This document shows, piece by piece, positions 1-55,394 of a stretch of 64,000 nt of DNA; positions within the stretch are counted from its first letter, which is position 1; each line of letters starts with the position of its first letter. A program made the position numbers and the translations under genes. A model generated the notes under the pieces. It ran no database searches, had not been told where the DNA came from, and saw only the letters and a program-made list of their open reading frames with translations. Source of the stretch: Candidatus Omnitrophota bacterium (lineage in GTDB: Bacteria; Omnitrophota; Gorgyraeia; 2-01-FULL-45-10); NCBI GenBank assembly GCA_026387175.1, contig JAPLME010000006.1:108078-172077 (forward strand), given 5' to 3'.

Positions 1-983
1 ACGATATTATAGGTAAGCAATCTGATCCGATGTTCTTTTATTATAGCCGTCGCGGATTCTATCTGGCCTATGGTCACCTCTTTCTTCAGGATGTCGTTCC
101 TCATATGATCGTCCCCCGATTCGATGCCGAGCCTTATCGAAAAACACCCTGCGCCCTTCATCTTTTTCACAAGGTCCCGCGTTACAAGGTTCGCCCGCGC
201 GGTGCAGCTGAACGGCAGGCCTATCTCATTTTTATAAATACCGAGGAACTCATCCACCCACTGTTTGGACAGTATAAATGTATCGTCAAGAAAGAAGATG
301 TGCCCCAGCCCGGGATTCTCTGTCTTCAAGGCCCTGATCTCATCGATAACATGCCTGACGCTGCGCCGCCTGATCACTTTCCCGTTGTTCCGGTACATAT
401 CGTTATACAGCTTATTGAAACAGAAAGAGCACTGGAAGGGGCAGCCCCTGGCGGTAAGCATGTGCCTGTGTTTCTGTTCTTTGAAAAACCCGTATTTGTC
501 ATAGATGCCTCTGTCCGGATACGGAATCGAATCCAGATCGTCTATCAGAGGCCTGAGGCCGTTGGTATATATACGTCCGTCTTTTTTTACCACAAGGTTC
601 CTGATACCGGTTATATCTTTTCCGGATTCCATCGCGTTGACGATGTCCAGTATCGCGCCCTCCCCCTCTCCGCGACAGATGATATCGAATGACGGGTCCT
701 TTGCGATATCAGGGTAGAATGTGGGGTGCGCTCCTCCGCATATTATCGGCGCATCGATACGTGCCTTGACCTTCCGGGCAAGTTCGGACATCCAGGAATA
801 TTCGCCTGTGGTTATCGAAAAAGCTATGATGTCCGGCCGGCATTCCTCGGCCTTCTTTATCAGGTCCTTTTCAAGGCTCTCGATGAGAACGTCGGCCCCG
901 TGCCCCGCTTTTTTCAGCACGGCCGACAAGGTCGCGATACCGAGCTTTACAAAAGGGTCCCTCTGTAAAAAAAGTACTTTCAT
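1..983 (-). CDS. B12-binding-domain radical SAM protein, N-terminal part (C-terminus truncated by the window edge)
   Basis: The reverse-complement from 983 translates to MKVLFLQRDPFVKLGIATLSAVLKKAGHGADVLIESLEKDL..., which matches the N-terminal cobalamin-binding domain of nine paralogs in this window (MK[IV]L[FL]... followed by GH.V). The start ATG overlaps the stop of the upstream gene as ATGA at 980-983. The gene is not in the ORF track because it lacks a stop inside the window. Confidence 0.6.
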   Translation of the reverse strand, partial: MKVLFLQRDPFVKLGIATLSAVLKKAGHGADVLIESLEKDLIKKAEECRPDIIAFSITTGEYSWMSELARKVKARIDAPIICGGAHPTFYPDIAKDPSFDIICRGEGEGAILDIVNAMESGKDITGIRNLVVKKDGRIYTNGLRPLIDDLDSIPYPDRGIYDKYGFFKEQKHRHMLTARGCPFQCSFCFNKLYNDMYRNNGKVIRRRSVRHVIDEIRALKTENPGLGHIFFLDDTFILSKQWVDEFLGIYKNEIGLPFSCTARANLVTRDLVKKMKGAGCFSIRLGIESGDDHMRNDILKKEVTIGQIESATAIIKEHRIRLLTYNI

Positions 984-2359
984 TCCAGCTCCCATAACAT
1001 CGAAAGGCACTTCTGCATCATACCGAGGCCGTGGCGAAAAGCCTTCATCTTGGATTTACCGCTGATCCTCTTCTTATAGTGAACGGGCATCTCGGCCATC
1101 TTCAATCTCAGCTTTGCGGCTCCATACAGAAGATCAAAGTCGCCCCACTTGCAGTCCTTCATCTCGATATGCCGGTAATGACGCTTCAGGAGCGCCTTGG
1201 TGCCGCAGAGCGTATCGGTATTACGCTGCCCCATTATGATGCTCATCATGATGCCGAACATCTTGTTACCGATATAATTGGCGAACTTCATCGCCTCTTT
1301 CTCCATCGGGTATACCATCCTGGTGCCGTTCACGAACTCAGCGGTCCCGTCGGCGATGGCATTGAAGAACTTGGGGATATCTTCCGGCATTACGGCCATA
1401 TCGGCGTCCAGTATCATAAGCACATCGCCTTTCGCGCTTTCAAAACCCGTGCGCACGGCGTTCCCCTTACCAAGGTTCTTCTCTATGCGTACCACCCTGA
1501 CACCCTCGATCTCTTTCGCCATCTTCCGGGCTATATCATACGTCCTGTCCGTCGACCCGTCATCGACGATGAGGATCTCCGTCTGCGCCCCGACTCTGGG
1601 CACCCTCCTCACGCACTCCTCAACATTGCCCTCCTCGTTATGGCACGGCACTATGACGGAGCACGACAGCTTGTCCCTTTTCGAAAGGCGCTGCCGTTTT
1701 CGGCAGACCGCATATTGGACAAAGGATATATTATTTATAACAAAGACTCGCGGTATGATCTTATTGATGATCTTCGATATCAGCGGGATCCGGACCGGAA
1801 GGGCCAATCTGAACCCTTTCTCGGAAATATCGTAATCCGCCACTTCCAGTATATTGCATATGTCCCTGAGCGTGACAAAATTACGGGGCGCATCCGGCGT
1901 CCTCAACCCAAGCTTCGCGCCCAGCCGTATCACGGGGGCCCACAGGGGATTTATATTATTGATCAATATTTTCGTATCATCGCCGGCCCATTCTCTCAGC
2001 CGGCCGAAGAACAGGCACAGGTCCTCGGTATAATCCAGAAGATTGGAGAGTATTATGTAATCGAAATCCTGCCTCGGTTCGAGCGTCCATATGTCCCCTT
2101 TCACAAGATCCAGGTCCGGATGCTTCTTCTTTGCGGCCTCTATCATATTCCCGCTTATGTCCATACCGAATCCATACAACGGCTTTACGGCAGCCAGTAG
2201 GCTCCCCGTCGCACAACCGACCTCCAGTACCCGCGAATCCGGCGGTATGATCTGGCAGTAAAACCTTGTCACCTGGTCGTGGTAGTACCCGTTCTTCCTT
2301 TTGTAAGAATCGTAATTATCGGCTATGGAATCGAAATGCTTGCGAACCTGATCAATCAT
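980..2359 (-). CDS. Bifunctional class I SAM methyltransferase (N-terminal) fused to a GT2 glycosyltransferase (C-terminal, dolichyl/polyprenyl-phosphate sugar synthase-like)
   Basis: N-terminal MTase motif I VLEVGCATGSLL and later DYIILSNLLDY. C-terminal GT2 motifs CSVIVPCHNEEGNVEECV and ILIVDDGSTDRT with an aspartate-rich catalytic region. Confidence 0.75.
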   Translation of the reverse strand: MIDQVRKHFDSIADNYDSYKRKNGYYHDQVTRFYCQIIPPDSRVLEVGCATGSLLAAVKPLYGFGMDISGNMIEAAKKKHPDLDLVKGDIWTLEPRQDFDYIILSNLLDYTEDLCLFFGRLREWAGDDTKILINNINPLWAPVIRLGAKLGLRTPDAPRNFVTLRDICNILEVADYDISEKGFRLALPVRIPLISKIINKIIPRVFVINNISFVQYAVCRKRQRLSKRDKLSCSVIVPCHNEEGNVEECVRRVPRVGAQTEILIVDDGSTDRTYDIARKMAKEIEGVRVVRIEKNLGKGNAVRTGFESAKGDVLMILDADMAVMPEDIPKFFNAIADGTAEFVNGTRMVYPMEKEAMKFANYIGNKMFGIMMSIIMGQRNTDTLCGTKALLKRHYRHIEMKDCKWGDFDLLYGAAKLRLKMAEMPVHYKKRISGKSKMKAFRHGLGMMQKCLSMLWELE

Positions 2360-4986: not shown

Positions 4987-4995
4987 GCTATGGCC

Positions 4996-5910: not shown

Positions 5911-6805
5911 AGCGTTCCTTTCTCATGGCCTTCATGGACAAAAGACCTTCCCGCAACCCCAGAGACACGAACCCTATCTCGCTCTCGATCTTCTCTGTGC
6001 GGTATGACGTGTTCTTCGGTCTCGGCGCTATATTCGGAAAGAAACTGCTATCGACGGGCTTGATCAGGCGCGCATCCAGCCCGAACACATCCGCAATGAG
6101 AAGCGCATAATCATAACGGCTGACTATGTCCCGCCCCGCGATATGATAAGTCCCCTTCTTGTCCATTTCGAGAAGCGACCAGATCGCTTCGGCGCAATTA
6201 TAGGCGCACAACGGATTATCGTAAACATCCACGACCATATTGACGTCCTTGCCGGAGCCGAGGGAGTCGATCAGGGCCGTGACGAGGTTCTTCCTTTCGC
6301 CTTCGTGGTTCCATCCGTACATCAGTATCGGCCTGACGATGATATTGTCCTCTAACGCTTTCTTGACCATGATCTCGCAATCTAATTTCATGGCTCCGTA
6401 TTTATTGATCGGGTTGACCTTGTCGTTCTCTCCGTAAGGGGCATGCTCCCCGTCAAAAACGGCATTGGTCGATATATATACAAGCTTTGCCTTTGCTTTT
6501 TCGCACAGTTCGACGATATTCTTTGTCCCCAGCACATTGGACCGGTATGCAAGGTCATAATGCCTCTCGCAAAAATCGACATCCGCCGCGCCTGCAGTAT
6601 GGATGACGGCGTCGATCTTCTTCGCCAGGAATACCGCCTCGAGCGCGCCGCGATCCTGCACGTCCGCCGGATAATACGTTATGTCGGGCCCGTTCGCCAT
6701 CCCATACTTGCCCAAATAGACGCCGGCGACCTTATGCGAAGGTTTTTTTGTATCGATGAGCGCCCTGCCCAACAGCCCCGTAGCGCCGGTTATCAAAATA
6801 TTCAT
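5894..6805 (-). CDS. RmlD-like NAD(P)H-dependent nucleotide-sugar 4-ketoreductase (dTDP-4-dehydrorhamnose reductase family)
   Basis: MNILITGATGLLGRAL Rossmann motif, YISTNAVFDGE, NKYGAMKLDCE (YxxxK) and C-terminal PRPKNTSYRTEKIE, colinear with RmlD. Confidence 0.6.
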   Translation of the reverse strand: MNILITGATGLLGRALIDTKKPSHKVAGVYLGKYGMANGPDITYYPADVQDRGALEAVFLAKKIDAVIHTAGAADVDFCERHYDLAYRSNVLGTKNIVELCEKAKAKLVYISTNAVFDGEHAPYGENDKVNPINKYGAMKLDCEIMVKKALEDNIIVRPILMYGWNHEGERKNLVTALIDSLGSGKDVNMVVDVYDNPLCAYNCAEAIWSLLEMDKKGTYHIAGRDIVSRYDYALLIADVFGLDARLIKPVDSSFFPNIAPRPKNTSYRTEKIESEIGFVSLGLREGLLSMKAMRKERCGKGA

Positions 6806-7863
6806 CTCTGTCCTTTTAAAAAATATCTCAACTTCTTCAGCATGGCACCGCGTCTTGTCGGCGCACCCAGGCAGTGCTGACAGGCGGTAGGAAGGGGCGT
6901 CCCCTTATTCCTGATATTATCCAGCAACGGCGCGCTCTTCTCCAGTATCGCTCCGAGCGTATCTTTCTGGATATTTCCAAGCGAGACTTTACCATCATAC
7001 GCCATGCAGCATGGAACGACATCGCCGCTTGACAGCACCCCCAATATCCTGCTATTGCACGGCCTGGCTTTTTTCACAGGATAGAATTTCTCAATCCTCC
7101 GGCCGTAAATGAAAGGCTTTATCTTCAACGAAATATTATCAGCAACTCTCAACCCCGGCTCCAGCATATAATTCGCACTAACATCTGCAAGATAACCATC
7201 GACAAGGTCGGCGTCGTATCGGTACGAGGGGATCCAAGCCTGCATCTCCCGTAAGAAGCCTTTGCTGTCGATCTTCAGGTCTTTTACAGTATCATATACG
7301 GAAGGATCACCCTGCTCAAGTCCAAGCAGCTGCTTCAATCTGCCGGTCCCGGATATAAAATTGCATGCAATATCAACGGTGACGTTCGAGGTGGTGTTGC
7401 GGACCGCTTTCAGGAATGCAAATATCCCATCCTTGTATTGCTGAAAATCGTATCCTGTCTTACGAACGCGGGAGAACAATCCGGCGCTCAATACCTGCAG
7501 CGACACCTTGATATATTCCGGGCGGGCATCGATTAGCCTATCTATCACCTCTTTTGAATTGAAAAGAAGTCCGTTCGTTACGATCATCACGGGCACCTTG
7601 CGCCCCCTGGCGTAACTGATGAAAGAATATATACGCTGATCGAGCAATGGTTCATTGAACTGGCTAAGGCAGAGATGCCGAAACTCTTCCGTCACACATA
7701 TCGAATCAATGACGCTGAACACGGCCTTATCCGGCAAGATACTGGCCTTATCGCGCCGTAGCGGATAACCGCAAAAATCGCAGTTCATATTGCAAAGGGA
7801 CATTGTCTCGAGTTGGAGGATGGAGAACCCGTATCGCGTTATGTCAACTTGCTGAAGGCTCAT
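6802..7863 (-). CDS. Radical SAM / SPASM-domain protein (start re-assigned to MSLQQVD)
   Basis: CNMNCDFC radical SAM cluster motif. C-terminal auxiliary-cluster cysteines CNSRILGVLSSGDVVPCCMAYDG...CQHCLG. The ATG at 7861-7863 forms an ATGA overlap with the upstream stop at 7860-7862. Confidence 0.65.
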   Translation of the reverse strand: MSLQQVDITRYGFSILQLETMSLCNMNCDFCGYPLRRDKASILPDKAVFSVIDSICVTEEFRHLCLSQFNEPLLDQRIYSFISYARGRKVPVMIVTNGLLFNSKEVIDRLIDARPEYIKVSLQVLSAGLFSRVRKTGYDFQQYKDGIFAFLKAVRNTTSNVTVDIACNFISGTGRLKQLLGLEQGDPSVYDTVKDLKIDSKGFLREMQAWIPSYRYDADLVDGYLADVSANYMLEPGLRVADNISLKIKPFIYGRRIEKFYPVKKARPCNSRILGVLSSGDVVPCCMAYDGKVSLGNIQKDTLGAILEKSAPLLDNIRNKGTPLPTACQHCLGAPTRRGAMLKKLRYFLKGQR

Positions 7864-8945
7864 CCGGCCCTCCTGTTGCGCAAACAGTGAAGCAGCCACG
7901 TAGCGCGGGTATAAAAGTGATGGTCGTGCAGCATCATATCCACCCTGCGTGAAACCGCGCCTGACAGGGAATTTTCACGCCACCGGATAAAACGCATATT
8001 TCTTTCGTATTCCCGCGGAAACGGCAGCGTCTTCTTTACCCGTGCACGCTTAAATATTCCTCTCGCCTTCCCATCCACATAAATCGGTTCCAGACCTTCT
8101 GCAACGCTTATCAATGCATTCCTTGAAAAATGGTACAGGTGAGCTATATGAAGTGAACCGAGATAACTACGGGTGGGGCTGTTATAATACTGGGCATTCT
8201 TGATGCTCGGCACCGATAGGAAGAGGATCCCGCTGTCCTTGAGAAGACCGCATGCCACCATGACCGCTGCCTTCGGATCTGCCAGATGCTCAAGCACATG
8301 GTTCATTATTACCAGGTCGAAGCGATCGCGGATATGCTTCATATCGTCGATGCCACCGTGGCGCAGATCAAGCCCTTTGTTAATGCTTCTGCCATACTCA
8401 AGATAGCTATCGTTTAGGTCATACCCCCGGACCTCAGCGCCTGCGTCCAGGAAGGAGGCCAATATTCCTCCGGCGGAACAACCGATCTCCATGACCGATT
8501 TACCCTTCAATGTAAACGCCTTGTAATGAGCACGGAGAAAATCCATTATGTACAACCCGTTCGTCCGCTGCGCCTTGAAATGCGCGGATATGCTTGACGT
8601 TCCGGAATTGAAATAGAGGTCTTGGTACTCCTTGCTGTAGAATTCTCTTAAAGAACGATCGTCGAGGCGGGGGTCTGTGCGTAATATACCGCAAGACTTG
8701 CAAATCACCGTATTCAAACTGAACCCGTAGCGGTCAGTTTCAGCGATAATCGCCGCATCGCCGGAACCGCACAGACATCGGCAGTGTTCAAGCGCATAGA
8801 TCCCGCTCCCGATCTTCTCCTGGATAGCATCCCGTAGCTTTATCTGTTCATCGCTTAACGGCAGGTGCGCTATGTTCGAGAATTGGTATTTCTTCGATAT
8901 TATTTTGCGATCGTGCGTGCTCATCTTATGACCCATTCGTTGCAA
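7860..8945 (-). CDS. Class I SAM methyltransferase with N-terminal zinc-ribbon (2x CxxC)
   Basis: CRCLCG...CKSCG zinc ribbon, then VMEIGCSAGGILASF and DLVIMNHVLEHL. Paralog of 19804..20805. Confidence 0.7.
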   Translation of the reverse strand: MQRMGHKMSTHDRKIISKKYQFSNIAHLPLSDEQIKLRDAIQEKIGSGIYALEHCRCLCGSGDAAIIAETDRYGFSLNTVICKSCGILRTDPRLDDRSLREFYSKEYQDLYFNSGTSSISAHFKAQRTNGLYIMDFLRAHYKAFTLKGKSVMEIGCSAGGILASFLDAGAEVRGYDLNDSYLEYGRSINKGLDLRHGGIDDMKHIRDRFDLVIMNHVLEHLADPKAAVMVACGLLKDSGILFLSVPSIKNAQYYNSPTRSYLGSLHIAHLYHFSRNALISVAEGLEPIYVDGKARGIFKRARVKKTLPFPREYERNMRFIRWRENSLSGAVSRRVDMMLHDHHFYTRATWLLHCLRNRRAG

Positions 8946-9554
8946 TTATGAAATTTTGGTTATATTTTCGCTATGCTTATAACTTTCTTCAAGCACATCG
9001 GCCACAGCCTTATCCCATTTATTCTGGGCCTTCAGTATGAGCCGTATCGCCTCTGCAACGGCACCTTCGCCGCCGTTCTTCTTCGTAATATAATCGGCGA
9101 CATCTTTCACCTCATCTACCGCGTCGTTTACCGCGATCGCAAGCCCGACGTTTTTCAAGATCGGGAGGTCCAGAAAATCGTCTCCCATATACGCTATAGA
9201 GTCCCGTGTTGCGCTATTATTCTTCATCACCTCATCCAGTGTCTCGAGCTTATTTATCCTGTCCAGATACAACTCATCTATCTTGATCTTGCTTGCCCGC
9301 TTAGACACCGCCTCGGAGGCCCTTCCCGATACCAGCACGATCTTAAGCCCTGCCGCCTTTGCTGCCCAGCAGGAAGACCCGTCATGTATGCAGAAGAGCC
9401 TCGTCTCGAAGAGCTTCTTCTTACCGAGATCGTCGTTACTCCAGATAACAAAAGGTTTCGTCATGACCCCGTCCGTATCTATGATGAGTATCTTGATCTT
9501 TACGATCTTCTCCCTCAACCTGCTGTCCATGCTATTCATGCGTCCCCCTATCAT
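8946..9554 (-). CDS. kdsC: KdsC-like HAD-superfamily phosphatase (3-deoxy-ulosonate 8/9-phosphate phosphatase family)
   Basis: ILIIDTDGVMT (DxDGV), VSGRASEAV, AYMGDDFLDLP, GGEGAVAEAIRLILKAQ. Colinear with E. coli KdsC and immediately downstream of kdsB. Confidence 0.7.
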   Translation of the reverse strand: MIGGRMNSMDSRLREKIVKIKILIIDTDGVMTKPFVIWSNDDLGKKKLFETRLFCIHDGSSCWAAKAAGLKIVLVSGRASEAVSKRASKIKIDELYLDRINKLETLDEVMKNNSATRDSIAYMGDDFLDLPILKNVGLAIAVNDAVDEVKDVADYITKKNGGEGAVAEAIRLILKAQNKWDKAVADVLEESYKHSENITKIS

Positions 9555-10302: not shown

Positions 10303-10352
10303 AATGGTTTCCCTTTTATTGTCGTGACACTAAATGAACATAACCGGCCTCT

Positions 10353-23150: not shown

Positions 23151-23182
23151 AACATTCCTCCATCATTTAAAGGCCAACGGGA

Positions 23183-25572: not shown

Positions 25573-25575
25573 AGC

Positions 25576-26271: not shown

Positions 26272-26771
26272 ATCCCACCGAAGATACAGCCCGCAAGCTC
26301 ACGAACGGCTCCAGAGCCCGAGGGGGTCTTTAAGATCATCCGCGACACGTCCTTGATCGCTCTATATGCGTCGGAAGGGCAGACGGGCCAGCCAACGACT
26401 GCCATCGCGTCAAGATCATTCACGTCATTACCTACATAAACGACCTTCCCGAGCGGGATGCCTTTAATTTTGCAATATCTTTCAAGGGCATCCCTCTTAT
26501 CGTCGATACCGTACTTGATGGGGATGCGAAGCTTGCGCGCGCGAAAGACCGCCGTCTTATTCTTTTCTGTAGTGAGGATGACCTGTTCGACCCCGGAGCG
26601 GCGCATCATATCGATCGCCAGGCCGTCCGACCTGTTGACCATCACGCCCTCCGCCCCTTTCTCGCTGACGATCGCCCTATTATCCGTAAGCACACCGTCA
26701 AAATCGTATACGATCAGCCCTACATCTTTCAACTGTATCTTATGCACACGCTTTTTCAAATGAACCTCCAC
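26259..26771 (-). CDS. KdsC/YrbI-like HAD phosphatase (ulosonate-phosphate phosphatase family)
   Basis: LIVYDFDGVLTDN, TTEKNKTAV, VYVGNDVNDL, GSGAVRELAGCIFGG. Confidence 0.7.
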   Translation of the reverse strand: MEVHLKKRVHKIQLKDVGLIVYDFDGVLTDNRAIVSEKGAEGVMVNRSDGLAIDMMRRSGVEQVILTTEKNKTAVFRARKLRIPIKYGIDDKRDALERYCKIKGIPLGKVVYVGNDVNDLDAMAVVGWPVCPSDAYRAIKDVSRMILKTPSGSGAVRELAGCIFGGIWRI

Positions 26772-39626: not shown

Positions 39627-39633
39627 AAAGACG

Positions 39634-48480: not shown

Positions 48481-49809
48481 CTATGCCCTCGCCCTGTCAA
48501 TAAGTGAATCGAAAATACCGGCAAGTTCCCCCGCCCTGAGCTTTCGGGACAGATTTCGTATCTCCGTCTCCTTCCCATCGTATCGCACATTGCCATTTCG
48601 TGTAAATTCATCATACAGGCCGGCCAGCGCAGAGCGCAGATCTTCCCCTGTATCTGCCGTCAGGCCGCAGGATGTCTTTCGGATCAGTTCGTCCACTATG
48701 CTTCCCTTTCTGGCCAATGCCAGTATGGGCCTGCGCGATCCTATGTAGTCGTAAAGTTTCGCCGAATACCAGCCCTCGCCGCCTCTTCCCTGCCACTGGA
48801 CGAAGAGAAGCGCATCGGCCGACCTCTGCGCCTCCAGAGATTCCCGGTAACCGAGCTTTCCCATGTCTCTGACTATCCCGCTTAAATTATACGATACGGC
48901 CATTCCCTCTATGTCGGGCTTATCATAGCCAAGGACATGAAACCTGACATCCATCTTTCTGCCGTCTATACGGCCCTCCGCCATAAGATCCCTCATCGTC
49001 TTAAAGAGAAGATCCAAAGGCTGTTTGTCACGGTGAAGTTTTCCCGTATATGTTATGGTGAACTTATCGTTCGACTTATATGTGAACGGCTTAAAGTCCT
49101 CCTCATCGAATGCATTCTCAACGACCTTCACTTTACCGGGAGGACCCCCTATGGATCGGCGAAGCGTCTCTGCCCATGGCTCCGAAACGGTGATCACGGC
49201 ATCGGCGTCCTTCAGAACGCGCCTTTCGATCGACTTCAGAACCATCTTCTTTATCATGGGCCTTTGCCTGAAGTGGTCCTCCGCCCAGAGGTCTCTCAGG
49301 TCCGCTACCCACGGTATGCCGAACATCTTTTTCAATCTTCTTCCTATCAGATGCGCCGTCTCGGGCGGCGAGGTGCTAAAGATCATATCCACATGTTCGG
49401 CGGCGATGATCTTTCCGCCCTCTTCGATGCCAAACTTGTGCCATCCTATCTGGTCGTCCGGCATCAGTATGAGCTCGCGTAATAGAGACGGCCTGCGCGA
49501 GCATCCGGCCGGAGTTTCGGCTCTTGCAGCGGACGGAGCGCCGCATGCGCATCCATTCCGCCTGAAAGGCGACAGCTTTCTGATCTCTTCGATCGGATCC
49601 CTGTAATCGGTCCTGAATACACGCACATCAGGTAGAGATATCGTATCATTATTGCCGGTGCTCGATCCGGACTTCGCGGTCAACACAAGAGGCTGCCAGC
49701 CATACGCAGGAAGGTACTTGGCGAACTTAAGCGCCCTGACCAGCCCCACGCCTTCCATCGGCGGCCATACGTACGAGATGATCAGCACCTTTTTATCATT
49801 CACCGGCAT
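48481..49809 (-). CDS. GT4 family (GT-B) glycosyltransferase
   Basis: N-terminal VLIISYVWPPMEGVGLVRALKFAKYL; C-terminal domain with LGYRESL...ADALLFVQ pattern. Contains a GC-rich Ala/Arg/Cys-rich insertion at residues about 83-108. Confidence 0.65.
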   Translation of the reverse strand: MPVNDKKVLIISYVWPPMEGVGLVRALKFAKYLPAYGWQPLVLTAKSGSSTGNNDTISLPDVRVFRTDYRDPIEEIRKLSPFRRNGCACGAPSAARAETPAGCSRRPSLLRELILMPDDQIGWHKFGIEEGGKIIAAEHVDMIFSTSPPETAHLIGRRLKKMFGIPWVADLRDLWAEDHFRQRPMIKKMVLKSIERRVLKDADAVITVSEPWAETLRRSIGGPPGKVKVVENAFDEEDFKPFTYKSNDKFTITYTGKLHRDKQPLDLLFKTMRDLMAEGRIDGRKMDVRFHVLGYDKPDIEGMAVSYNLSGIVRDMGKLGYRESLEAQRSADALLFVQWQGRGGEGWYSAKLYDYIGSRRPILALARKGSIVDELIRKTSCGLTADTGEDLRSALAGLYDEFTRNGNVRYDGKETEIRNLSRKLRAGELAGIFDSLIDRARA

Positions 49810-51355
49810 CGACCTCTGACATGGTAAGGCGTTTTAGATCGAGAAAATACCGTTTTTGCGGCAGGGGCTTCTCTTGAACTGTCCGGCTGTCGCCGCTGAC
49901 TCCCCATTTACCGTCGGGCAGCCTTGTAAAATATATCCCGCGCCTCAGATTAATGCTGTCGACGCTTGTCCTGTAATTTTTCCTGTACGATACGGACTGC
50001 TTCAGCCTTTTGAAAAAGTTCCGATAATCGTACCTCAGGATCAGCAGCCATTTTTTGATCTTAAACAGGATCGGATGCATATCCGGCTCATTGTAGCTTC
50101 CGCTTCTTATATTCAGGATGCGCCTGGCCTTTATGCGTTCTTTCAACGGGAAATCTTTGGTCTCGTAAGCGATGCTGCCGTACCGCGTGCCTATCGACGA
50201 GATGTTATAAGCGTCGGCAAGCATCACGGCGTTGTCCTTCGCCCATCGTTCGATCCCTGTACCGGTGAAGGGCACGCAAGAAGCGTACGCCAGGAGATCG
50301 AGATCCAGCTTCCTCGCGTTTTCAAACGACCTCAATGTCTTTTTGAAGGTATCGCCCGGGAGCCCCATAAGCATATATCCGAAGATCTCTATATTATGTT
50401 TCTTCATCAGCGCGATCCCTTTCCGGATCTGCTCTATGGTCTCGCCTTTATTGATCTTCTTAAAGACATCCTCTTCAAGCGTCTCTATACCGACCCATAT
50501 GCGCCGGCAGTTCGCGTCCTTAAGGCTCTGCATCAGGCCCTCCGTCATCCTGTCGGCCCTGAATCCCTGTACGACCCACGGCATATCGAGTTTCTCTTCC
50601 ACTAAAAGCCTGCAGAATTTTTCCACGCGGCCTATATCGACATTGAACGACGCGTCGCATACATGGAACATCTTCGCTCCATATCGCTCCTTTGCCGCCC
50701 TGATCTCCTTTATGATATTCTCCGGAGAGCGCGCCCTCCACTTCTTCCCTAAGTGCGAGAAACAGAATACGCAGCCATACGGACAGCCGCGGGTGGTAAC
50801 GATAGGATAGACATCCATCTTGTCGACGCCGAATACGCCGTAATCGGGGAATTCGATCGAGTCGAGATCGCCTATGAATTCCCTGGGAGGATTGATCGTG
50901 ATATCCCGCCCGTTCCGCCAGGCCAGGCCCTTGACGGGACCGAGTGCTGCCTTTTTGTCCAAGGCATTCAGCAGTTCTACAAGCGTCAGCTCGCCTTCGC
51001 CTATGACTGCAATGTCGGCTTCCGGGATAAGCTCGAGCGCCTTGCCCTTAAGCGCGGACACCTCGGGGCCGCCCAATATCACGGTGCCCTTAAAATATTT
51101 TTTCATCTCTTTCACGTAGGCCTTCACGTTGTTGAAGCTCATATTGGTGACCGATATCCCTATCGCGTCCGGTTTGAAGGCATCCACCGCGTCCCTGATG
51201 GACTTGAGCGGCTCATCCACCCGAATATTGACAAAATCCAGAACGCTGACGATATGGCCGCGCCTCAGGGCGCTGGTCGCGCAATACGCTATACCGATAT
51301 TGAGCCCCGTCGATTCCTTGTCACCCATCGGATCTATGAAAAGTATCTTCATCAC
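49796..51355 (-). CDS. B12-binding-domain radical SAM enzyme (class B)
   Basis: MMKILFIDPM...RGHIVSVLDF; VTTRGCPYGCVFCFSH. Confidence 0.8.
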   Translation of the reverse strand: MMKILFIDPMGDKESTGLNIGIAYCATSALRRGHIVSVLDFVNIRVDEPLKSIRDAVDAFKPDAIGISVTNMSFNNVKAYVKEMKKYFKGTVILGGPEVSALKGKALELIPEADIAVIGEGELTLVELLNALDKKAALGPVKGLAWRNGRDITINPPREFIGDLDSIEFPDYGVFGVDKMDVYPIVTTRGCPYGCVFCFSHLGKKWRARSPENIIKEIRAAKERYGAKMFHVCDASFNVDIGRVEKFCRLLVEEKLDMPWVVQGFRADRMTEGLMQSLKDANCRRIWVGIETLEEDVFKKINKGETIEQIRKGIALMKKHNIEIFGYMLMGLPGDTFKKTLRSFENARKLDLDLLAYASCVPFTGTGIERWAKDNAVMLADAYNISSIGTRYGSIAYETKDFPLKERIKARRILNIRSGSYNEPDMHPILFKIKKWLLILRYDYRNFFKRLKQSVSYRKNYRTSVDSINLRRGIYFTRLPDGKWGVSGDSRTVQEKPLPQKRYFLDLKRLTMSEVDAGE

Positions 51356-52833
51356 GCCGCTCCTTTTGCAGAATATTTAGGGTTATAGTATCTGTTGAAC
51401 CGGTGCAGCACCTCTATCTCCCAGGGGAAAGCGAAGAACTTTGTCTTTAGCCTTGCTTTGCTTATCCTGTAAAATATCTCTTTTCCGAAAGTCCGTATCA
51501 TATTGGATCCCTTGGAATGTGTCAATAGCTTGCCGTATTTATCTATCCTGTAGAAGAGCGTCTTCGTATCTTTATCCGCCCATGGAAGCCAGCTGAGGTG
51601 CATCTTTCCGGTGAACGTGTCGAAGGTATCGTAATCCGCCATATTCGCCGGCAGGTTGAACCCGTTCTCGATCGCAAGCTGGTAGAGATACGATCCCGGA
51701 TACGGTATGAATGTCTGGAACGTCACGACTATGTCGGAAAATATTTCCGACAACGTAACTCCGAGGTCCACTGTCTGCCATATCTCATCCATGGTTTCCG
51801 TAGGAAAACCTATTATCATCGCGGCCGTTACGGATATATTCGGAAACTTCGACAGGAGCTTGAACTGTTTCAATATGAGTTCGCGCGTCAGCCCCTTATT
51901 GATCAGCTCCAGGACACGGCTCGATCCCGACTCCACCCCCACGAATATCCGCCTCACCCCCAGCGCCTCCAGGCGCCTCAATATCGGTTCCGTCAATACC
52001 TCGAGCCGTATCATGCACGATGTGGCCACCACATCCATCTCTTTCAACTTCTCAAGGATATTGAATGCCCTGTCCATATCAACAAAGAAGTTGTCATCAT
52101 GAAATTGTATCGCCCTTATATTATGATGTCTCCTGAGATACCCTATCTTGTCTATAACGTATTCCGGCGAATGCTTGCGCCATCTCCTGTCATTGAACTT
52201 CAGGTTATAGCAGAAACTGCAGTTATAGGGACAGCCCCTCGATGCGACGAAATCCACCTGCCTTCTGCCGTCGGGCAGGACCGTGACGCATTTCTCAAAA
52301 TCATTCTCGAGGCTCCAGTCAGGTTCGTATTTATCGAGCTCACCTATGAACGGCCTCCTCGAATCTATGACAAATTTACCGTTCTCTTTATATCCTATGC
52401 CCCTGACGCCTTTCAGCTCTTTACCCTGCGCCAGGCAACCCGCCAGCTCCGCCACCATCTCCTCGCCCTCGCCCATTGCGACTATGTCCACGCAATCTTC
52501 TTTGAGGCAGTCCTCCGGCAGAAGGGTCGGATGGACGCCGCCCCAGACTATGGTCACATCTTTGTCGCGAGCCTTGATGGCCTTCGATATTTCATAGCTA
52601 TATTTTGTCTGGGCCCCCGTGAGAGTGGATATCCCGACGAAGAGCGGCTGCATGGCCGTTATCTCATCCGCCGCGGTGCCTATATCCTCTTTAAAAATGT
52701 TAAAGAGGCGCACGTCATACCCGGATTTTTTAAGCGTGCTTCCGAGATAGATGAGCCCGAGCGGGTGTATGACCACGTCCGACTCGATACGCACGAGGGC
52801 CACGATCTTATTATTTTTAATTTTCTTCTCCAT
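51352..52833 (-). CDS. B12-binding-domain radical SAM enzyme (class B) (start re-assigned to MEKKIKNNKIVAL)
   Basis: VASRGCPYNCSFCYNL. The track ORF start at 52980 would overlap the upstream gene by 143 nt. The ATG at 52831-52833 leaves a 4-bp gap and has a GGAGCG RBS. Confidence 0.75.
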   Translation of the reverse strand: MEKKIKNNKIVALVRIESDVVIHPLGLIYLGSTLKKSGYDVRLFNIFKEDIGTAADEITAMQPLFVGISTLTGAQTKYSYEISKAIKARDKDVTIVWGGVHPTLLPEDCLKEDCVDIVAMGEGEEMVAELAGCLAQGKELKGVRGIGYKENGKFVIDSRRPFIGELDKYEPDWSLENDFEKCVTVLPDGRRQVDFVASRGCPYNCSFCYNLKFNDRRWRKHSPEYVIDKIGYLRRHHNIRAIQFHDDNFFVDMDRAFNILEKLKEMDVVATSCMIRLEVLTEPILRRLEALGVRRIFVGVESGSSRVLELINKGLTRELILKQFKLLSKFPNISVTAAMIIGFPTETMDEIWQTVDLGVTLSEIFSDIVVTFQTFIPYPGSYLYQLAIENGFNLPANMADYDTFDTFTGKMHLSWLPWADKDTKTLFYRIDKYGKLLTHSKGSNMIRTFGKEIFYRISKARLKTKFFAFPWEIEVLHRFNRYYNPKYSAKGAA

Positions 52834-52837
52834 GATC

Positions 52838-53911
52838 CTACGCTCCGATACGGATGCCTTTATTGTCGGGACAGACCTTGCAGGGATCCGGGATCCGGCA
52901 ATTATCCTTAGACAGGAAGGCCCTCCGCATATCTTTAAAGAAAGCGTTGTTCCAGACATTTTCGTCTTTGTAGCTGCCATGCCCGGACATATTGAGCAGC
53001 ATCATCGAACAGCTGGAGACGTTGCCGTCCCCGTCGAACCTTATCTGGGAAAAATGCGTTTCGCAGTTATTTTCGCTCATATTCCTATCGACCAATAGCG
53101 GCGGAGTAAGCTTCCTCCTGATGGCGGCAGGATAGGACGCGAATATGGCTCTCATCTCGTCGATAACCTTCTTATCGGCCATAAGGGACCTCTCCTCGGC
53201 CCTGAGGCCGTCATAAGGGGCCGACAGGAAGTTGCAGAAGAAAGAGTGGTCGGCGCCCAGCGCAATACTGACATCCACCATATAGGGAATGAATTTGTAG
53301 TTATGCCTATCGATTATATATGACAACTTTACCTTCACACTTGAAGACCTCCGCCTCTTCTCTTCGACCAGCATCCTGACGGAGTCGTAAATCTCCTGAT
53401 AGGTTTCCGGGCCCATGCCGGTCATACGGCTGAACTCTTCCGAATTGTGCCCGTTTATGCTTATAGTGATGCCGTCCAGGGCCGAATTCAATATATTATC
53501 GATATTCTTCCGGATCATCGTGCCGTTGGAGAAGGTCTTTACGGTCATCTTCTTGAGCGCCGCGTAATCGACCATCTTGAAAAAATCCTTGTTCAGAAGC
53601 GGCTCGCCGGAACCTATTATATGCACCGTCGCAGCGTTCTTGAATCGGTTTATGATCTCCTTGAACCTTGCCAGGTCCATATCCTTTATGGACTGCTGGG
53701 CGTGGGCGTAGTCGCCGGGGACGCGCCCCGAATGCGTCGGACACATGTCACAGGAGAGCGTGCAACGGCCGGTCGCCACTATGGAGATGGTGACGGGATC
53801 GTAATGCAGCATCTCCTTCTTCCCTGAAAGAAGGTACCGTAAGTAATTGCTCTTTTGGGCCAGGGTATGAGGGGCCAGGACCATGTTGATCATATCTCTT
53901 GCGATACTCAT
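52838..53911 (-). CDS. Radical SAM / SPASM-domain protein
   Basis: ATGRCTLSCDMCPTHSG radical SAM motif. C-terminal CETHF...SSCSMML...CRIPDPCKVCPDN auxiliary-cluster cysteines. Confidence 0.65.
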   Translation of the reverse strand: MSIARDMINMVLAPHTLAQKSNYLRYLLSGKKEMLHYDPVTISIVATGRCTLSCDMCPTHSGRVPGDYAHAQQSIKDMDLARFKEIINRFKNAATVHIIGSGEPLLNKDFFKMVDYAALKKMTVKTFSNGTMIRKNIDNILNSALDGITISINGHNSEEFSRMTGMGPETYQEIYDSVRMLVEEKRRRSSSVKVKLSYIIDRHNYKFIPYMVDVSIALGADHSFFCNFLSAPYDGLRAEERSLMADKKVIDEMRAIFASYPAAIRRKLTPPLLVDRNMSENNCETHFSQIRFDGDGNVSSCSMMLLNMSGHGSYKDENVWNNAFFKDMRRAFLSKDNCRIPDPCKVCPDNKGIRIGA

Positions 53912-53912
53912 A

Positions 53913-55394
53913 TCACACCGCGCTTCTTATCTTCTCGGCCGCCATCCGGTTCTTTAACCGTTTCCGCAGGTTTGAGATGAATTTATTGTTAACGATATGC
54001 TCATAGACTATGCCGCTGGCGTATATGCGCGCCAGGGCCGAGGCCGTGCGGGGCCCGAGCCCCATATCCCGGAATTTCCGGTACGCGTTATTCCTGGAAT
54101 ACGCGCGCCTCGTCCTCTTAATATGCCCCGAAGTCGAGCGGTAAGCGTAATCGAACGCCTTCTTCCTGAGCTCGTAGGGAAATTCCGGCGTCGACAAAAA
54201 AGGCGTATTCCTGCGCTGCGATCCGTCATTGAGGTATTCCTCGGGGCTCCTCAGCAGATATCCGGACTTTTTGACGGACTCGAAAAGCTCCGTGCGCGGA
54301 TAAGGAAGTATATGATAGAAGCTGGCTATCATGACAGGATACTTGGTTGCCAGGCTGACAGTCTTCTCGAAATCCTTCCACGTCTCACCCGGGGCGCCGA
54401 TCAGAAAATAGAGTTCGACTATATAACCGAGATCGCAGGCCGTCTTAATGGCCTCTTCCATGGTCTTCACGGTGGAACTCTTCTTAAGGCTCTTGAGTAT
54501 CCCGTCGTCGCCGGACTCCACGCCGAGCCCTATCATCCTGAACCCGACCTCCTTCATGCGTTTCAGTATCTTATGGTCTATCTTATCGGCCCTGACGCCG
54601 TTATCGCACATCAGGTACAGGCCCTTTAATCTACGCCGTTCGATCTCATCGCATACCTGATACACCCTCTCTTGAACCAATGTGAAATTATCGTCCCGAA
54701 AACTGAACTCGCGGCGGCCAAGATTATAATGGTATTCGAGCTCATCGGCCACGCTCTTCGCGGAACGCGTAACGAACCTTCTTCCTATGGCAAGCTGAAC
54801 GGGACAATAGGTGCACTCGAAAGGGCATCCGCGCGAAGAGAAAAGGGATATCAGCGACGAATAATCGGTTTTGTCGAATTTCTCATACTTCGGATACGGC
54901 AGGCTGTCCAGATCCTGCAGGAATGGCCTGTCGCCGTTATAGACTATCCTGCTGCCGTCTCTATGTATCAACCCCTTTATCCCGGCGATATCTCCGTCTC
55001 CGGCCAGTTCCACAAGAGCGTGCTCGCCCTCTATCACTATGCCGTAATCTATGGCAGGGCAATCTCTCAGCACCTCTTCGCGCATAGTGGAGACATGCGC
55101 TCCGCCGGCAACGATCCGTATCTCCGGAAAGAGCGCCTTGACGCGCCCGAGCATGCCGTAATTATATTTATAATTCAGGCTCATCATGCTGAGGCCGAAT
55201 AGATTCGGCTTGAAGCGCCTTATCTTGTCGAAGAGCCCCTTCTCGGTATTCTTCGCTACGTTCAGATCGAATACGTCATTCTCGATGCCATTTGCCGTAA
55301 GGAATTCGGACAGATATCCTATTCCCGCCGGAAGGACGTTCGAAAAGACGGAATCGTATTTGGCCTGGGCCAATAATATATTTTTAAATCTCAT
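53913..55394 (-). CDS. B12-binding-domain radical SAM enzyme (class B)
   Basis: MRFKNILLAQAKYD...NGIENDVFD; FSSRGCPFECTYCPVQ. Confidence 0.8.
   Translation of the reverse strand: MRFKNILLAQAKYDSVFSNVLPAGIGYLSEFLTANGIENDVFDLNVAKNTEKGLFDKIRRFKPNLFGLSMMSLNYKYNYGMLGRVKALFPEIRIVAGGAHVSTMREEVLRDCPAIDYGIVIEGEHALVELAGDGDIAGIKGLIHRDGSRIVYNGDRPFLQDLDSLPYPKYEKFDKTDYSSLISLFSSRGCPFECTYCPVQLAIGRRFVTRSAKSVADELEYHYNLGRREFSFRDDNFTLVQERVYQVCDEIERRRLKGLYLMCDNGVRADKIDHKILKRMKEVGFRMIGLGVESGDDGILKSLKKSSTVKTMEEAIKTACDLGYIVELYFLIGAPGETWKDFEKTVSLATKYPVMIASFYHILPYPRTELFESVKKSGYLLRSPEEYLNDGSQRRNTPFLSTPEFPYELRKKAFDYAYRSTSGHIKRTRRAYSRNNAYRKFRDMGLGPRTASALARIYASGIVYEHIVNNKFISNLRKRLKNRMAAEKIRSAV

Follow-up and report, generated by a model that had tools for sequence, protein, structure and literature searches.

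Ten B12-binding radical SAM enzymes, putative sugar-tailoring enzymes, in a glycan locus of an uncultured Omnitrophota bacterium

GenK and GenD1 of the gentamicin pathway and MoeK5 of the moenomycin pathway are cobalamin-dependent radical SAM sugar C-methyltransferases and take part in the assembly of oligosaccharides from nucleotide sugars. The MoeK5 pathway yields a lipid-linked oligosaccharide and also uses AsnB-type amidotransferases. Two further class B enzymes contract rings of sugar moieties: HpnJ (hopanoid cyclitol ether), for which contraction of a lipid-bound glucosamine is proposed, and OxsB (oxetanocin), for which contraction of a deoxyribose has been shown. AprD4 (apramycin), a radical SAM sugar 1,2-diol dehydratase that acts on an aminoglycoside sugar, is not known to use cobalamin. 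GenK/GenD1 and MoeK5 are classed with the single-methylation enzymes (PMC9204698), and C-methyltransferases are described as the best represented group of the class (PMC9204698, PMC12931638), methylases being much the largest group among its characterised enzymes (PMC12931638). The main similarity cluster of the class mixes the methylases Fom3, MoeK5 and GenK with the non-methylases HpnJ, BchE and the ladderane enzyme, and the function of its members is not readable from sequence (PMC9204698). Here we describe a glycan locus with ten genes of this domain architecture.

Ten B12-binding radical SAM genes in a glycan locus

The window, that is, the whole 64-kb stretch of DNA analysed, comes from a Candidatus Omnitrophota MAG, an uncultured bacterium. 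It carries about 57 tightly packed consecutive glycan genes, including ten for B12-binding radical SAM enzymes, three for radical SAM enzymes without a B12 domain and about 12 for class I methyltransferase-domain proteins, and may represent most of a surface-glycan biosynthesis supercluster of more than 68 kb. Since independent Logan assemblies match positions 1-25333 and 52400-64000 at 100% and a 242-kb NCBI MAG contig encodes identical proteins, an assembly artefact is ruled out for the window sequence. All ten genes, confirmed at the positions given in an earlier note on this DNA, are intact and lie on the minus strand, with no decay in cluster or SAM motifs; the single-number positions in that note are their low (3') ends. 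Given an assumed background of 1% of the genome's genes being of this type, ten among 57 consecutive genes is far above chance (binomial P ~3e-10). The main features are as follows (all on the minus strand).

1..983: g0, B12-binding radical SAM, N-terminal 327 aa with the C-terminus outside the window (full gene 472 aa at L007 11377-12795); CPFQCSFC motif; PF02310 65.6 and PF04055 68.9 bits
980..3835: g1, methyltransferase-GT2 fusion; g2 and g3, class I SAM methyltransferases
6802..7899: g7, radical SAM/SPASM without B12 domain (PF04055 + PF13186)
8946..12299: second CMP-sugar module; g11 (648 aa, distantly like the TIGR04326 surface-carbohydrate family), g10 (KdsB-like cytidylyltransferase), g9 (HAD phosphatase)
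13876..15333: g14, B12-binding radical SAM, 485 aa (PF02310 + PF04055)
15343..17130: g15, fused TMD-NBD ABC exporter (PF00664 + PF00005)
17133..18635: g16, B12-binding radical SAM, maximal ORF 500 aa (public gene call in L001: 483 aa, start 18584); PF04055 62.5, PF02310 37.8 bits (marginal)
20807..26771: putative ulosonic-acid module around g21; g19 (Fe-ADH), g20 (DegT aminotransferase), g22 (short NeuB-family synthase), g23 (CMP-transferase), g24 (HAD phosphatase)
23183..24700: g21, B12-binding radical SAM, 505 aa (PF02310 + PF04055)
28650..30044: g26, B12-binding radical SAM, 464 aa (PF02310 + PF04055), flanked by TylF-type methyltransferase g27 and PFTS-motif protein g25; 65% ortholog in L038
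33347..34849: g31, B12-binding radical SAM, 500 aa; PF04055 81.3, PF02310 37.9 bits (marginal); insertion in the N-terminal domain, as seen in the alignment of the ten
35586..36833: g33, GT4 glycosyltransferase, fusion partner of g34
36823..38307: g34, B12-binding radical SAM, 494 aa (PF02310 + PF04055)
38304..40593: g36, GT2 that ends in two transmembrane helices and is similar to polyprenyl-phosphate sugar synthases, and g35, GT-C (PMT_2) with ~10 transmembrane helices; conserved core with g34 and g33
41784..43169: g38, radical SAM/SPASM without B12 domain, conserved backbone; 52% ortholog in L022
43166..44647: g39, Wzx-like flippase, ~12-14 transmembrane segments (WzxE model 101 bits, sub-cutoff; weak MatE match)
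49796..51355: g45, B12-binding radical SAM, 519 aa, accessory (PF02310 + PF04055)
51352..52833: g46, B12-binding radical SAM, accessory, 493 aa by public gene call (maximal ORF 542 aa)
52838..53911: g47, radical SAM without B12 domain, conserved backbone (public gene call: 348 aa, start 53884); 63% ortholog in L022
53913..55394: g48, B12-binding radical SAM, 493 aa, accessory (PF02310 + PF04055), downstream of g50 and methyltransferase g49
56184..58079: g50, AsnB-type glutamine amidotransferase
7860-8945, 12259-13020, 13049-13843, 19804-20805, 30041-30700, 31367-32719, 45955-46875, 47746-48477, 55391-56194: further class I methyltransferase-domain genes

As the earlier note held, the ten are embedded among glycan genes: three GT2, three GT4 and three GT-C/PMT_2 glycosyltransferases, four CTP_transf_3 cytidylyltransferase-type proteins, NeuB, HAD phosphatases, two DegT aminotransferases, SDR epimerases/dehydratases and a UDP-glucose dehydrogenase are interleaved with them. 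A papain-like peptidase and a transglutaminase-like protein are also encoded. The coding fraction is 99.7%, with 32 overlapping gene junctions and only four intergenic gaps (50-182 bp). The single operon proposed earlier is doubtful and probably incorrect, because two of the four gaps contain the best promoter-like sites of the window and one follows a terminator-like hairpin. Within the window, we found no cobalamin synthesis or uptake genes, no cobalamin riboswitch, no hopanoid genes, and no fatty-acid, isoprenoid or polyketide genes. Since neither an initiating phosphoglycosyltransferase nor a Wzy polymerase was recognised in it, its gene content leaves open whether the glycan is an O-antigen, a capsule or a protein glycan. 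To our knowledge, no Omnitrophota glycan has a known chemical structure.

HMM searches and fold comparison revealed that the ten proteins are class B-type enzymes. The B12-binding signature, on which the earlier reading depended, is present throughout: every protein passed the Pfam gathering scores of both PF02310 (37.8-82.1 bits against 32.1), g16 and g31 only barely, and PF04055 (62.5-94.5 bits against 29.5). Each contains one CxxxCxxC motif, and the class B signatures GG, GEGE, RGCxxxCxxC and GxES are invariant in their alignment. They had been called paralogous, which stands at the superfamily level but not beyond it; given pairwise identities of only 23-35%, they appear to be distinct ancient subfamilies rather than recent duplicates. 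None of the ten reached the NCBIfam equivalog cutoff of any named family (best scores 99-177 bits against 480-750). The best sub-threshold models spread over BchE, HpnJ, ApyD and PhpK, a few bits apart, with Sden_1168 also close; HpnJ or BchE ranks top for seven of the ten, and the RiPP enzyme ApyD for g14 and g16. HpnJ gives the best sub-threshold score of g48 (167 bits, cutoff 578), and the ladderane lipid model scores a sub-threshold 141 bits on g26. HpnJ orthology of the ten was rejected, their scores on its model being 98-172 bits where 577.6 is required. An AF2 model of g34 (pLDDT 91) adopts a class B fold, with TsrM, MgmA/QCMT, CysS, OxsB and TokK as structural neighbours (TM 0.63-0.71) and the highest TM-score for AprD4 (0.71). 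A profile of the ten retrieved the same solved structures from the PDB; its top match, AprD4 (1.9e-46), covers the radical SAM core only (profile positions 155-408).

Related loci and conserved partners

Comparison with related Omnitrophota loci showed that the glycosyltransferase/flippase backbone is kept, whereas g48, g46, g45 and several methyltransferases are variably missing; the radical SAM genes thus behave as accessory tailoring genes of the glycan. In locus L022, the contiguous backbone g50-g47-g44-g40-g39-g38-g36-g35-g34/g33-g32 is found without g49, g48, g46, g45, g43, g42, g41 and g37. Of the eight missing genes, six encode methyltransferases or B12-radical SAM enzymes, the other two being g42 (no known domain) and g37 (epimerase). 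Another locus (L015) lacks g45, g38 and g37 and retains g46 at 78% identity. Genes of the g50 type recur beside B12-radical SAM genes in six loci (L020, L024, L025, L081, L087 and L092).

Three of the subfamilies were examined further, and their orthologs occur elsewhere at 45-80% identity. First, g34 is a core member kept across Omnitrophota, with 14 orthologous loci. Its coding sequence overlaps that of g33 in the window, and g34-like and g33-like GT4 proteins are fused in five other genomes (P0004, P0045, P0067, P0093 and L022, the last as a single 903-aa ORF). Hence g34 probably works together with g33 as a complex. Second, g14 directly follows the gene of the ABC exporter g15 and precedes that of the TylF-type methyltransferase g13 in the direction of transcription, and the exporter adjacency is kept in the P0354 context. 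Its orthologs share 53-73% identity with it within Omnitrophota, and those in Methylophilales and Tara Oceans (TARA) contigs 45-49%. Its homologs sit in sugar loci in every context examined, and one subfamily member (P0363) carries a fused class I methyltransferase.

Third, members of the g21 subfamily are accompanied by sialic-acid-like sugar genes in different phyla. Homologs of 45-64% identity occur in eight differently named lineages, and NeuB plus CTP_transf_3 lie within 7 kb of a g21-subfamily gene in five of six contexts, the window counted in; by contrast, NeuB is found in one of 66 generic B12-radical SAM loci (Fisher p = 2.5e-5). Homologs 47-53% identical to g21 stand beside NeuB and CTP_transf_3 in Magnetovibrio, where the locus adjoins flagellar genes, in Bacteriovoracaceae, in an archaeal MAG and in a Deltaproteobacteria MAG. 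In those loci with DNA at hand, NeuB is 45-49% identical to g22, and the Bacteriovoracaceae contig holds the g21 homolog amid the same gene families as g19-g24, including Fe-ADH and DegT. Judged by this gene context, g21 may modify a ulosonic acid made by NeuB, either free or activated with CMP.

The earlier note knew of no comparable system. Our neighbourhood search, however, recovered one to four B12-radical SAM genes per 21 kb in other Omnitrophota loci, and arrays of four to seven in 10-19 kb, as dense as that of the window, in contigs with links to MAGs of Bacteroidales, Elusimicrobiota and Nitrospirae and in two contigs without a taxonomic link. These arrays adjoin GT2, methyltransferase, DegT or related sugar genes. 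No publication on comparable dense arrays was found; comparable unstudied B12-radical SAM/sugar clusters exist in several other phyla. The oxygen-sensitive lifestyle once deduced from the ten is a weak inference, the same subfamilies occurring in Methylophilales and Magnetovibrio MAGs and in Tara Oceans metagenome scaffolds.

Putative tailoring mechanism and its rivals

Domain content, fold and gene context, together with the accessory pattern in related loci, the g34-GT4 fusions and the cross-phylum co-occurrence of g21 with NeuB, favour the tailoring role assigned to the ten before. We therefore propose a putative model in which they act as glycan-tailoring enzymes, mostly by class B C-methylation, and give this reading as a whole a probability of roughly 0.55. 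The conserved backbone would build and export a lipid-linked heteroglycan by means of GT4 and GT2 transferases, a GtrB/ArnC-like GT2 paired with a GT-C transferase, a Wzx-like flippase, an ABC exporter, nucleotide-sugar enzymes and two CMP-ulosonic-acid modules. In the cytoplasm, the ten would each modify specific substrates, predicted to be CMP/UDP-activated or polyprenyl-linked sugar intermediates, alongside the ~12 SAM methyltransferase-domain proteins and the three other radical SAM enzymes. Their most likely chemistry is C-methylation, with cobalamin as the predicted cofactor. Initially, the [4Fe-4S] cluster of most of the ten would split SAM to a 5'-deoxyadenosyl radical, which would abstract hydrogen from an unactivated sugar carbon. 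Afterwards, methylcobalamin would give its methyl group to the substrate radical, and the resulting cob(I)alamin would be re-methylated by a second SAM. The product would be a glycan bearing C-methyl (branched-chain) sugars on top of O- and N-methyl groups. GenK/GenD1, MoeK5 and Fom3, which acts on cytidylyl-HEP, provide precedents for C-methylation of sugars or CMP-linked substrates (PMC9204698, PMC12931638).

The most serious rival, possible though clearly less probable, is that the ten tailor the glycan chiefly through radical reactions in which no methyl group is transferred, such as ring contraction, AprD4-type 1,2-diol dehydration/deoxygenation, epimerisation or formation of C-C bonds that build higher-carbon sugars. 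It draws on the top ranks of HpnJ or BchE, on the fold and profile searches that place AprD4 first and the ring-contracting OxsB beside methylases, and on the grouping of HpnJ, BchE and the ladderane enzyme with methylases in the main similarity cluster (PMC9204698); moreover, with ~12 ordinary methyltransferases present, radical enzymes are not needed as a methyl source. Yet these family matches are far under their cutoffs and a few bits from the methylase models ApyD, PhpK and Sden_1168, the AprD4 profile match stops at the radical SAM core, and methylases dominate the characterised enzymes (PMC12931638). The methyltransferase fusion in the g14 subfamily fits a shared methylation task, without proving it.

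It is unlikely that the ten act instead on a peptide or protein, by RiPP-like C-methylation as in PoyC and ApyD, or on a lipid anchor, by a ladderane, hopanoid or GDGT type of modification, before glycosylation. The ApyD and ladderane matches would fit such targets, as would the peptidase, the transglutaminase-like protein, the exporter and the AsnB homolog, and lipid-modifying B12-radical SAM enzymes such as Grs and Hgm are known (10.1101/2023.10.20.563219). However, the dense packing leaves no space for a precursor-peptide gene beyond the annotated ORFs, lipid-pathway genes are missing from the window, all homolog contexts examined are sugar loci, and g34 and g21 are tied to a glycosyltransferase and to NeuB with a CMP-transferase, respectively. 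Least probable of all is a hypervariable and often exchanged surface-antigen cassette that would hold many of the ten as redundant, alternative or decaying genes, so that few radical modifications reach the final glycan: gene content does differ strongly between related genomes, and a preprint reports polysaccharide cassettes as hypervariable regions of Omnitrophota genomes (10.64898/2026.06.07.730766), but the ten are full-length with intact motifs, the subfamilies examined have orthologs elsewhere, and the overlapping junctions are typical of co-expressed functional genes.

Comparison with known systems

The putative ulosonic-acid module resembles nonulosonic-acid pathways (NeuB/PseI/LegI plus CMP-synthetase, in flagellin, capsule and LPS islands), whose families are matched by g22, g23 and g24. 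Unlike the usual NeuB, g22 is short (291 aa), lacks the C-terminal SAF domain and scores under the NeuB and PseI equivalog cutoffs. The Fe-ADH g19 and aminotransferase g20 recall the logic of KdnB/KdnA, which make Kdo8N in Shewanella by oxidation and then transamination, as PMC5125639 relates from Gattis 2013. In the literature searched, no described nonulosonic-acid pathway with a B12-radical SAM enzyme was found, whereas the window module includes g21. Fom3, said in PMC9204698 (citing Sato 2017) to recognise a CMP-activated substrate, is comparable in that B12-radical SAM genes adjoin CTP_transf_3 cytidylyltransferases in the window and related loci, a likeness of context; the Fom3 substrate, however, is a phosphonate rather than a sugar acid.

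Of the ring-contracting enzymes, HpnJ takes first or second place among the NCBIfam models for several of the ten, and OxsB is structurally close to the g34 model. AprD4, not known to use cobalamin, differs from the B12-binding ten, which score 46-105 bits on its model NF033070 against a cutoff of 500. A further parallel is to GenK/GenD1 and MoeK5, likened to the ten by domain architecture and by pathway (oligosaccharides from nucleotide sugars). The AsnB-type amidotransferases of the MoeK5 pathway have a counterpart in g50 near g48. Those pathways employ one or two such enzymes per actinomycete secondary-metabolite cluster, whereas the window encodes ten in what is probably a cell-surface glycan locus.

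Class membership of the ten enzymes

The ten genes that the earlier note named as B12-binding radical SAM (class B) enzymes (g0, g14, g16, g21, g26, g31, g34, g45, g46 and g48) are indeed present as ORFs, each with a single CxxxCxxC motif. All ten products score above the Pfam gathering thresholds for both the N-terminal Rossmann-type B12-binding domain (PF02310; 37.8–82.1 bits against 32.1, with g16 and g31 marginal) and the radical SAM core (PF04055; 62.5–94.5 bits against 29.5). Alignment of the ten proteins revealed that the cluster cysteines are invariant, as are the class-typical GG, GEGE, RGCxxxCxxC and GxES motifs. Public gene calls shorten g46 and g16 to 493 and 483 aa, respectively, and give the truncated first gene, g0, a full length of 472 aa. 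The AlphaFold (AF2) model of g34, the one enzyme modelled, is of high confidence (pLDDT 91.2), and Foldseek matched it to class B structures with E-values of 1e-19 to 6e-26 and TM-scores of 0.63–0.71. It is about equally close to TsrM, AprD4, MgmA/QCMT, CysS, OxsB and TokK, and a profile of the ten proteins recovered the same chains from the PDB. AprD4 possesses a similar N-terminal domain but is not known to use cobalamin; thus the domain alone is no proof of cobalamin use.

The best NCBIfam class B scores are 99–177 bits against cutoffs of 480–750, spread over the BchE, HpnJ, ApyD and PhpK models, and the runner-up models, including the ladderane-lipid one, follow within a few bits. With every class B model far under its curated cutoff, a named NCBIfam subfamily was rejected for each of the ten. 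The rejected identities comprise BchE (TIGR02026; 91–177 bits against an equivalog cutoff of 481; no chlorophyll genes), HpnJ (TIGR03471; 98–172 bits against 577.6; no hopanoid genes in the window), and, far below cutoff for all ten, the PhpK/Sden_1168 P-methyltransferases, ApyD, KedN5, HpnR, the MCR Gln C-methyltransferase, AprD4, the ladderane-lipid enzyme and the other NCBIfam class B models. The JGI labels on homologs ("anaerobic Mg-protoporphyrin cyclase", "YgiQ") are generic transfers. Given the structural neighbors of g34 and the sub-cutoff scores spread over several families, sequence and predicted fold establish the class of these enzymes, not their reaction. This outcome agrees with the main similarity cluster described in PMC9204698, in which methylases (Fom3, MoeK5, GenK) are mixed with non-methylases (HpnJ, BchE, the ladderane enzyme).

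Pairwise identity among the ten is 23–35%, whereas g34, g21 and g14 each have homologs elsewhere at 45–80%, which rules out recent duplication within the locus. Because of these values, the locus is taken to have been put together from old, distinct subfamilies rather than by local duplication.

Organization and reliability of the locus

The window contains 57 ORFs, all on the minus strand and covering 99.7% of the sequence, with 32 overlapping junctions and four gaps longer than 35 bp. Since domain-bearing minus-strand genes occupy nearly all of it, the plus-strand ORFs overlapping them (20 or more, of at least 150 aa) are regarded as shadow ORFs.

Features of the window (gene counts from the window annotation)
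10302–10353, first intergenic gap
33259–33347, second intergenic gap
41664–41784, third intergenic gap
59188–59371, fourth intergenic gap
33310–33338, minus strand, sigma-70-like site
41737–41766, minus strand, sigma-70-like site
59422–59407, GC-rich hairpin followed by a T-run
6802–7899, minus strand, radical SAM enzyme without B12 domain
41784–43169, minus strand, radical SAM enzyme without B12 domain
52838–53911, minus strand, radical SAM enzyme without B12 domain
Minus strand, glycosyltransferases: three GT2, three GT4, three GT-C (PMT_2)
Minus strand, export: one Wzx-like flippase, one ABC exporter
Minus strand, nucleotide-sugar genes: UDP-glucose dehydrogenase, four SDR epimerases/dehydratases, two DegT aminotransferases
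Minus strand, one AsnB-type amidotransferase and one Fe-alcohol dehydrogenase
Minus strand, acid-sugar genes: one NeuB-family synthase, four CTP_transf_3 proteins, two HAD phosphatases
Minus strand, about 12 class I methyltransferase-domain proteins, including two TylF-type

The two best minus-strand sigma-70-like matches within 30–45 kb (11 of 12 positions) sit inside the second and third gaps, and g52 ends, just before the fourth, in the terminator-like hairpin. This evidence is only suggestive, because the overall counts are not above those of shuffled controls. It favors three or four co-directional transcription units over the one operon previously described. No cobalamin or SAM riboswitch was found (zero Rfam matches in the window), nor any tRNA, and hence no tRNA-flanked island borders.

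The cluster extends past both window ends, with a GDSL/SGNH protein, a methyltransferase and a polysaccharide deacetylase beyond position 1 and the remainder of the UDP-glucose dehydrogenase beyond position 64000. The Wzx-like protein scores 101 bits against the WzxE model (cutoff 325); no Wzy and no Bac_transf or Glycos_transf_4 initiating enzyme were recognized within the window, the cluster running beyond both ends. The locus is real and not chimeric, because a 242-kb NCBI MAG contig (Candidatus Omnitrophica bacterium) encodes identical proteins, and independent Logan assemblies from several sequencing runs match window positions 1–25333 and 52400–64000 at 100%. An assembly artefact is thereby ruled out.

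The radical SAM enzymes that lack a B12 domain, three in number and two of them with SPASM, have tungsten-cofactor maturase and NirJ-type models as their top sub-threshold matches. Their homologs recur in related loci (L014, L022, L026, L055, L073 and others), and they are therefore probably part of the same tailoring toolkit. Positions 56184–64000 and 38304–40593, together with a gene past position 1 (L007 14726–15499), hold a set resembling that for 4-amino-arabinose (Arn): UDP-glucose dehydrogenase, SDR, DegT, a GT2 with two membrane helices, GT-C transferases and a polysaccharide deacetylase. Each score stays under its equivalog cutoff (SDR, 112 bits with the ArnA model; DegT, 219 bits with the ArnB model). 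A papain-family cysteine peptidase (Peptidase_C1; 60656–61456) and a membrane-anchored transglutaminase-like protein (34846–35589) also lie inside the locus; their homologs are adjacent in L014 (12742–14229), next to an ortholog of the GT4 gene g33. Four proteins of 293–648 aa carry no Pfam domain (10353–12299, 26740–28653, 18638–19816 and 46862–47743). Two of them weakly match NCBIfam models, namely the TIGR04326 surface-carbohydrate family (BFO_1060-like C-terminus) and a PFTS-motif polysaccharide protein. Because each of the two adjoins a CMP-transferase/HAD pair, they may be transferases for CMP-activated acids.

Conserved neighborhoods of g34, g14 and g21

Orthologs of g34 were found in 14 loci in Omnitrophota MAGs, some labelled Planctomycetota, each with one to four B12-radical SAM genes in at most 21 kb. 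The 14 loci share a core of GT2 (g36), GT-C (g35), g34 and GT4 (g33), and in many cases the transglutaminase-like g32 comes next. Given that g36 ends in two membrane helices, as in polyprenyl-phosphate sugar synthases, and that g35 is a GT-C protein with 10 helices, this core may make, modify and transfer a lipid-linked sugar. In the syntenic Omnitrophota locus L022, the backbone g50-g47-g44-g40-g39-g38-g36-g35-g34/g33-g32 is free of gaps, and the window has in addition g49, g48, g46, g45, g43, g42, g41 and g37. Six of these eight extra genes encode methyltransferases or B12-radical SAM enzymes, the others being g42, without a recognized domain, and the epimerase gene g37. A second such locus, L015, lacks g45, g38 and g37. 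Judged by these differences, the genes of the radical enzymes behave like interchangeable decorating units added to an assembly line that is itself conserved. Moreover, g34-like and g33-like sequences are fused into one polypeptide of 785–903 aa in P0004, P0045, P0067, P0093 and L022 (10004–12715), whereas in the window (35586–38307) they are separate genes, the start codon of g33 lying within the end of g34. The five fusions and the overlapping genes argue for a physical or functional pairing of radical enzyme and glycosyltransferase.

Homologs of g14 likewise occur within sugar loci. One of them, P0363 (713 aa), carries a class I SAM methyltransferase domain in the same polypeptide; two free-standing methyltransferase genes, g13 and g12, come after g14 in the window.

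Contexts of g14 homologs
Context 1, repeated adjacency to an ABC exporter, with a PFTS-motif protein, a CMP-transferase and three B12-radical SAM genes in 17 kb
Context 2, dTDP-sugar locus of a Methylophilales MAG
Context 3, Tara Oceans (TARA) contig with two cytidylyltransferases

Homologs of g21 are found in MAGs named Omnitrophica, Chloroflexota, archaeon, Bacteriovoracaceae, Deltaproteobacteria, Magnetovibrio, Alphaproteobacteria and Brocadiales, and five contexts outside the window were inspected.

Contexts of g21 homologs outside the window
Magnetovibrio, g21 homolog, NeuB, methyltransferase and CMP-transferase in this order, beside flagellar genes
Bacteriovoracaceae, CMP-transferase abutting the g21 homolog; Fe-ADH, DegT and NeuB at 3–5 kb, the families of g19, g20 and g22 in the window
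Archaeal MAG, CMP-transferase and several NeuB genes near the g21 homolog
Deltaproteobacteria MAG, g21 homolog with CMP-transferase, NeuB, a second B12-radical SAM gene and GT-C
Chloroflexota, g21 homolog on a contig that stops too early to judge its neighbors

NeuB is thus present in four of these five contexts versus one of 66 other B12-radical SAM loci (Fisher p = 2.5e-5, with slightly different detection methods for the two sets). Where DNA was at hand, the neighboring NeuB proteins are 45–49% identical to g22, a conservation similar to that of the radical enzyme. The window's own synthase g22 (PF03102, 237.7 bits) belongs to the NeuB family, and it stays under the equivalog cutoffs of both NeuB_NnaB (237 against 400) and PseI (171 against 340); the adjacent CMP-transferase g23 matches PF02348 with 105.8 bits. 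Given these neighbors and their frequencies, we conclude that g21 probably takes part in making a NeuB-derived ulosonic acid.

Distant lineages share the combination of a g21-type B12-radical SAM enzyme, a CMP-transferase and a short NeuB of about 290 aa that lacks the SAF domain; Fe-ADH, DegT, HAD or SIS proteins often join them.

Sites of the g21 module
20807–26771, window
9001–13355, contig L115
Contexts of P0215, L117 and L118

The module may encode an undescribed modified ulosonic acid, and with three to six genes it is small enough to make the question directly testable. The Fe-ADH/aminotransferase pair g19/g20 recalls, as a resemblance only, the KdnB/KdnA route to 8-amino-Kdo as outlined in PMC5125639 (citing Gattis 2013). 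Our literature search found no description combining nonulosonic acids with radical SAM enzymes in such loci.

Comparable loci, predicted chemistry and known systems

A metagenome scan with the ten-protein profile recovered at least 579 relatives, with several dense arrays among contigs of at least 9 kb.

Dense arrays of B12-radical SAM genes
L057, seven in 18.2 kb, including a tandem of five (4031–12415); 34% GC; two Pfam-confirmed
L071, six in 18.4 kb
L060, five in 18.6 kb; Bacteroidales MAGs by exact protein look-up
L040, five in 10 kb; 90%-cluster fragment from a Nitrospirae MAG
L053, four in 19 kb; Elusimicrobiota MAGs by exact protein look-up

The array contigs range from 30% to 61% GC. 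In view of them, the locus is not unique, and the density in the window (1.8 per 10 kb) is ordinary for such loci; its total of ten is the highest found here, though the other contigs are short. L057 also carries GT2, methyltransferases, a TPP enzyme, a radical SAM/SPASM enzyme and an acyltransferase. The TPP enzyme (389 aa; POR_N and TPP_enzyme_C), which follows the tandem, may act as a phosphonopyruvate-type decarboxylase, a hint that this glycan could be decorated with phosphonate. Literature searches (Omnitrophota/Omnitrophica radical SAM with glycosyltransferase; B12-binding radical SAM with polysaccharide) yielded no publication on such loci, and radical SAM enzymes go unmentioned in the papers on the Kuenenia S-layer glycan. 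An Omnitrophota preprint (10.64898/2026.06.07.730766) describes hypervariable polysaccharide cassettes and the joint occurrence of radical SAM and GT1 domains in long proteins, with nothing further on such loci. The phenomenon is widespread and unstudied.

A setting in sugar or oligosaccharide pathways is seen in the window, in the contexts of homologs and in the GT4 fusions. The ten enzymes very probably tailor a lipid-linked surface glycan and its CMP/UDP-activated precursors. Most of them are predicted to methylate an unactivated sugar carbon, with methylcobalamin as the methyl donor; to this joint reading, tailoring of the glycan mostly by radical C-methyltransferases, we assign a probability of roughly 0.55. 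Methylation is favored because methylases predominate among the characterized members of the class (PMC12931638), because GenK, GenD1, MoeK5 and Fom3 are precedents on sugar and CMP substrates (PMC9204698), and because methyltransferases are associated with these genes, in one case by fusion. The chief rival is radical chemistry on the sugar that transfers no methyl group, for example ring contraction or dehydration. No sequence motif is diagnostic of radical C-methyl transfer (PMC9204698), and the fold search could not part methylases from non-methylases, g34 having structural neighbors of both kinds; we consider this rival unlikely against the predominance of methylases. A peptide or lipid target in place of a sugar is less likely than such chemistry and altogether improbable: both candidates were rejected on the window annotation, which leaves no room for the precursor-peptide gene of a RiPP and includes no lipid genes. 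Also less likely than non-methylating sugar chemistry, and the most improbable of all, is a largely redundant cassette.

If whole sets of these enzymes decorate cell-surface glycans, surface sugars with carbon–carbon-bonded methyl branches would be expected, which would resist glycosidases and alter hydrophobicity and antigenicity, and in Omnitrophota and other ultra-small, host-associated bacteria the structure of the envelope would be coupled to cobalamin supply. On a broader scale, we tentatively propose, at somewhat below even odds, that glycan loci dense in class B radical SAM genes represent an unrecognized cross-phylum class of radically tailored surface glycans, with C-alkylated or rearranged sugars, in bacteria and archaea that are mostly uncultured. 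Among its members would be a new family of B12-radical-SAM-modified nonulosonic/ulosonic acids made by the module of g21, short NeuB and CMP-transferase (here, in the Magnetovibrio flagellar locus, the Bacteriovoracaceae contig, the archaeal MAG and the Deltaproteobacteria MAG).

To our knowledge, the cobalamin-dependent radical SAM enzymes are among the largest enzyme groups with almost no assigned functions, and we know of no characterized sugar-modifying member from outside antibiotic pathways. If batteries of them decorate surface glycans, this would supply a physiological setting for much of the "dark" sequence space of class B. Class B enzymes and their use in sugar pathways are already known, whereas their presence in numbers in surface-glycan loci, their fusion to a glycosyltransferase and their conserved pairing with a NeuB-type synthase have not been described.
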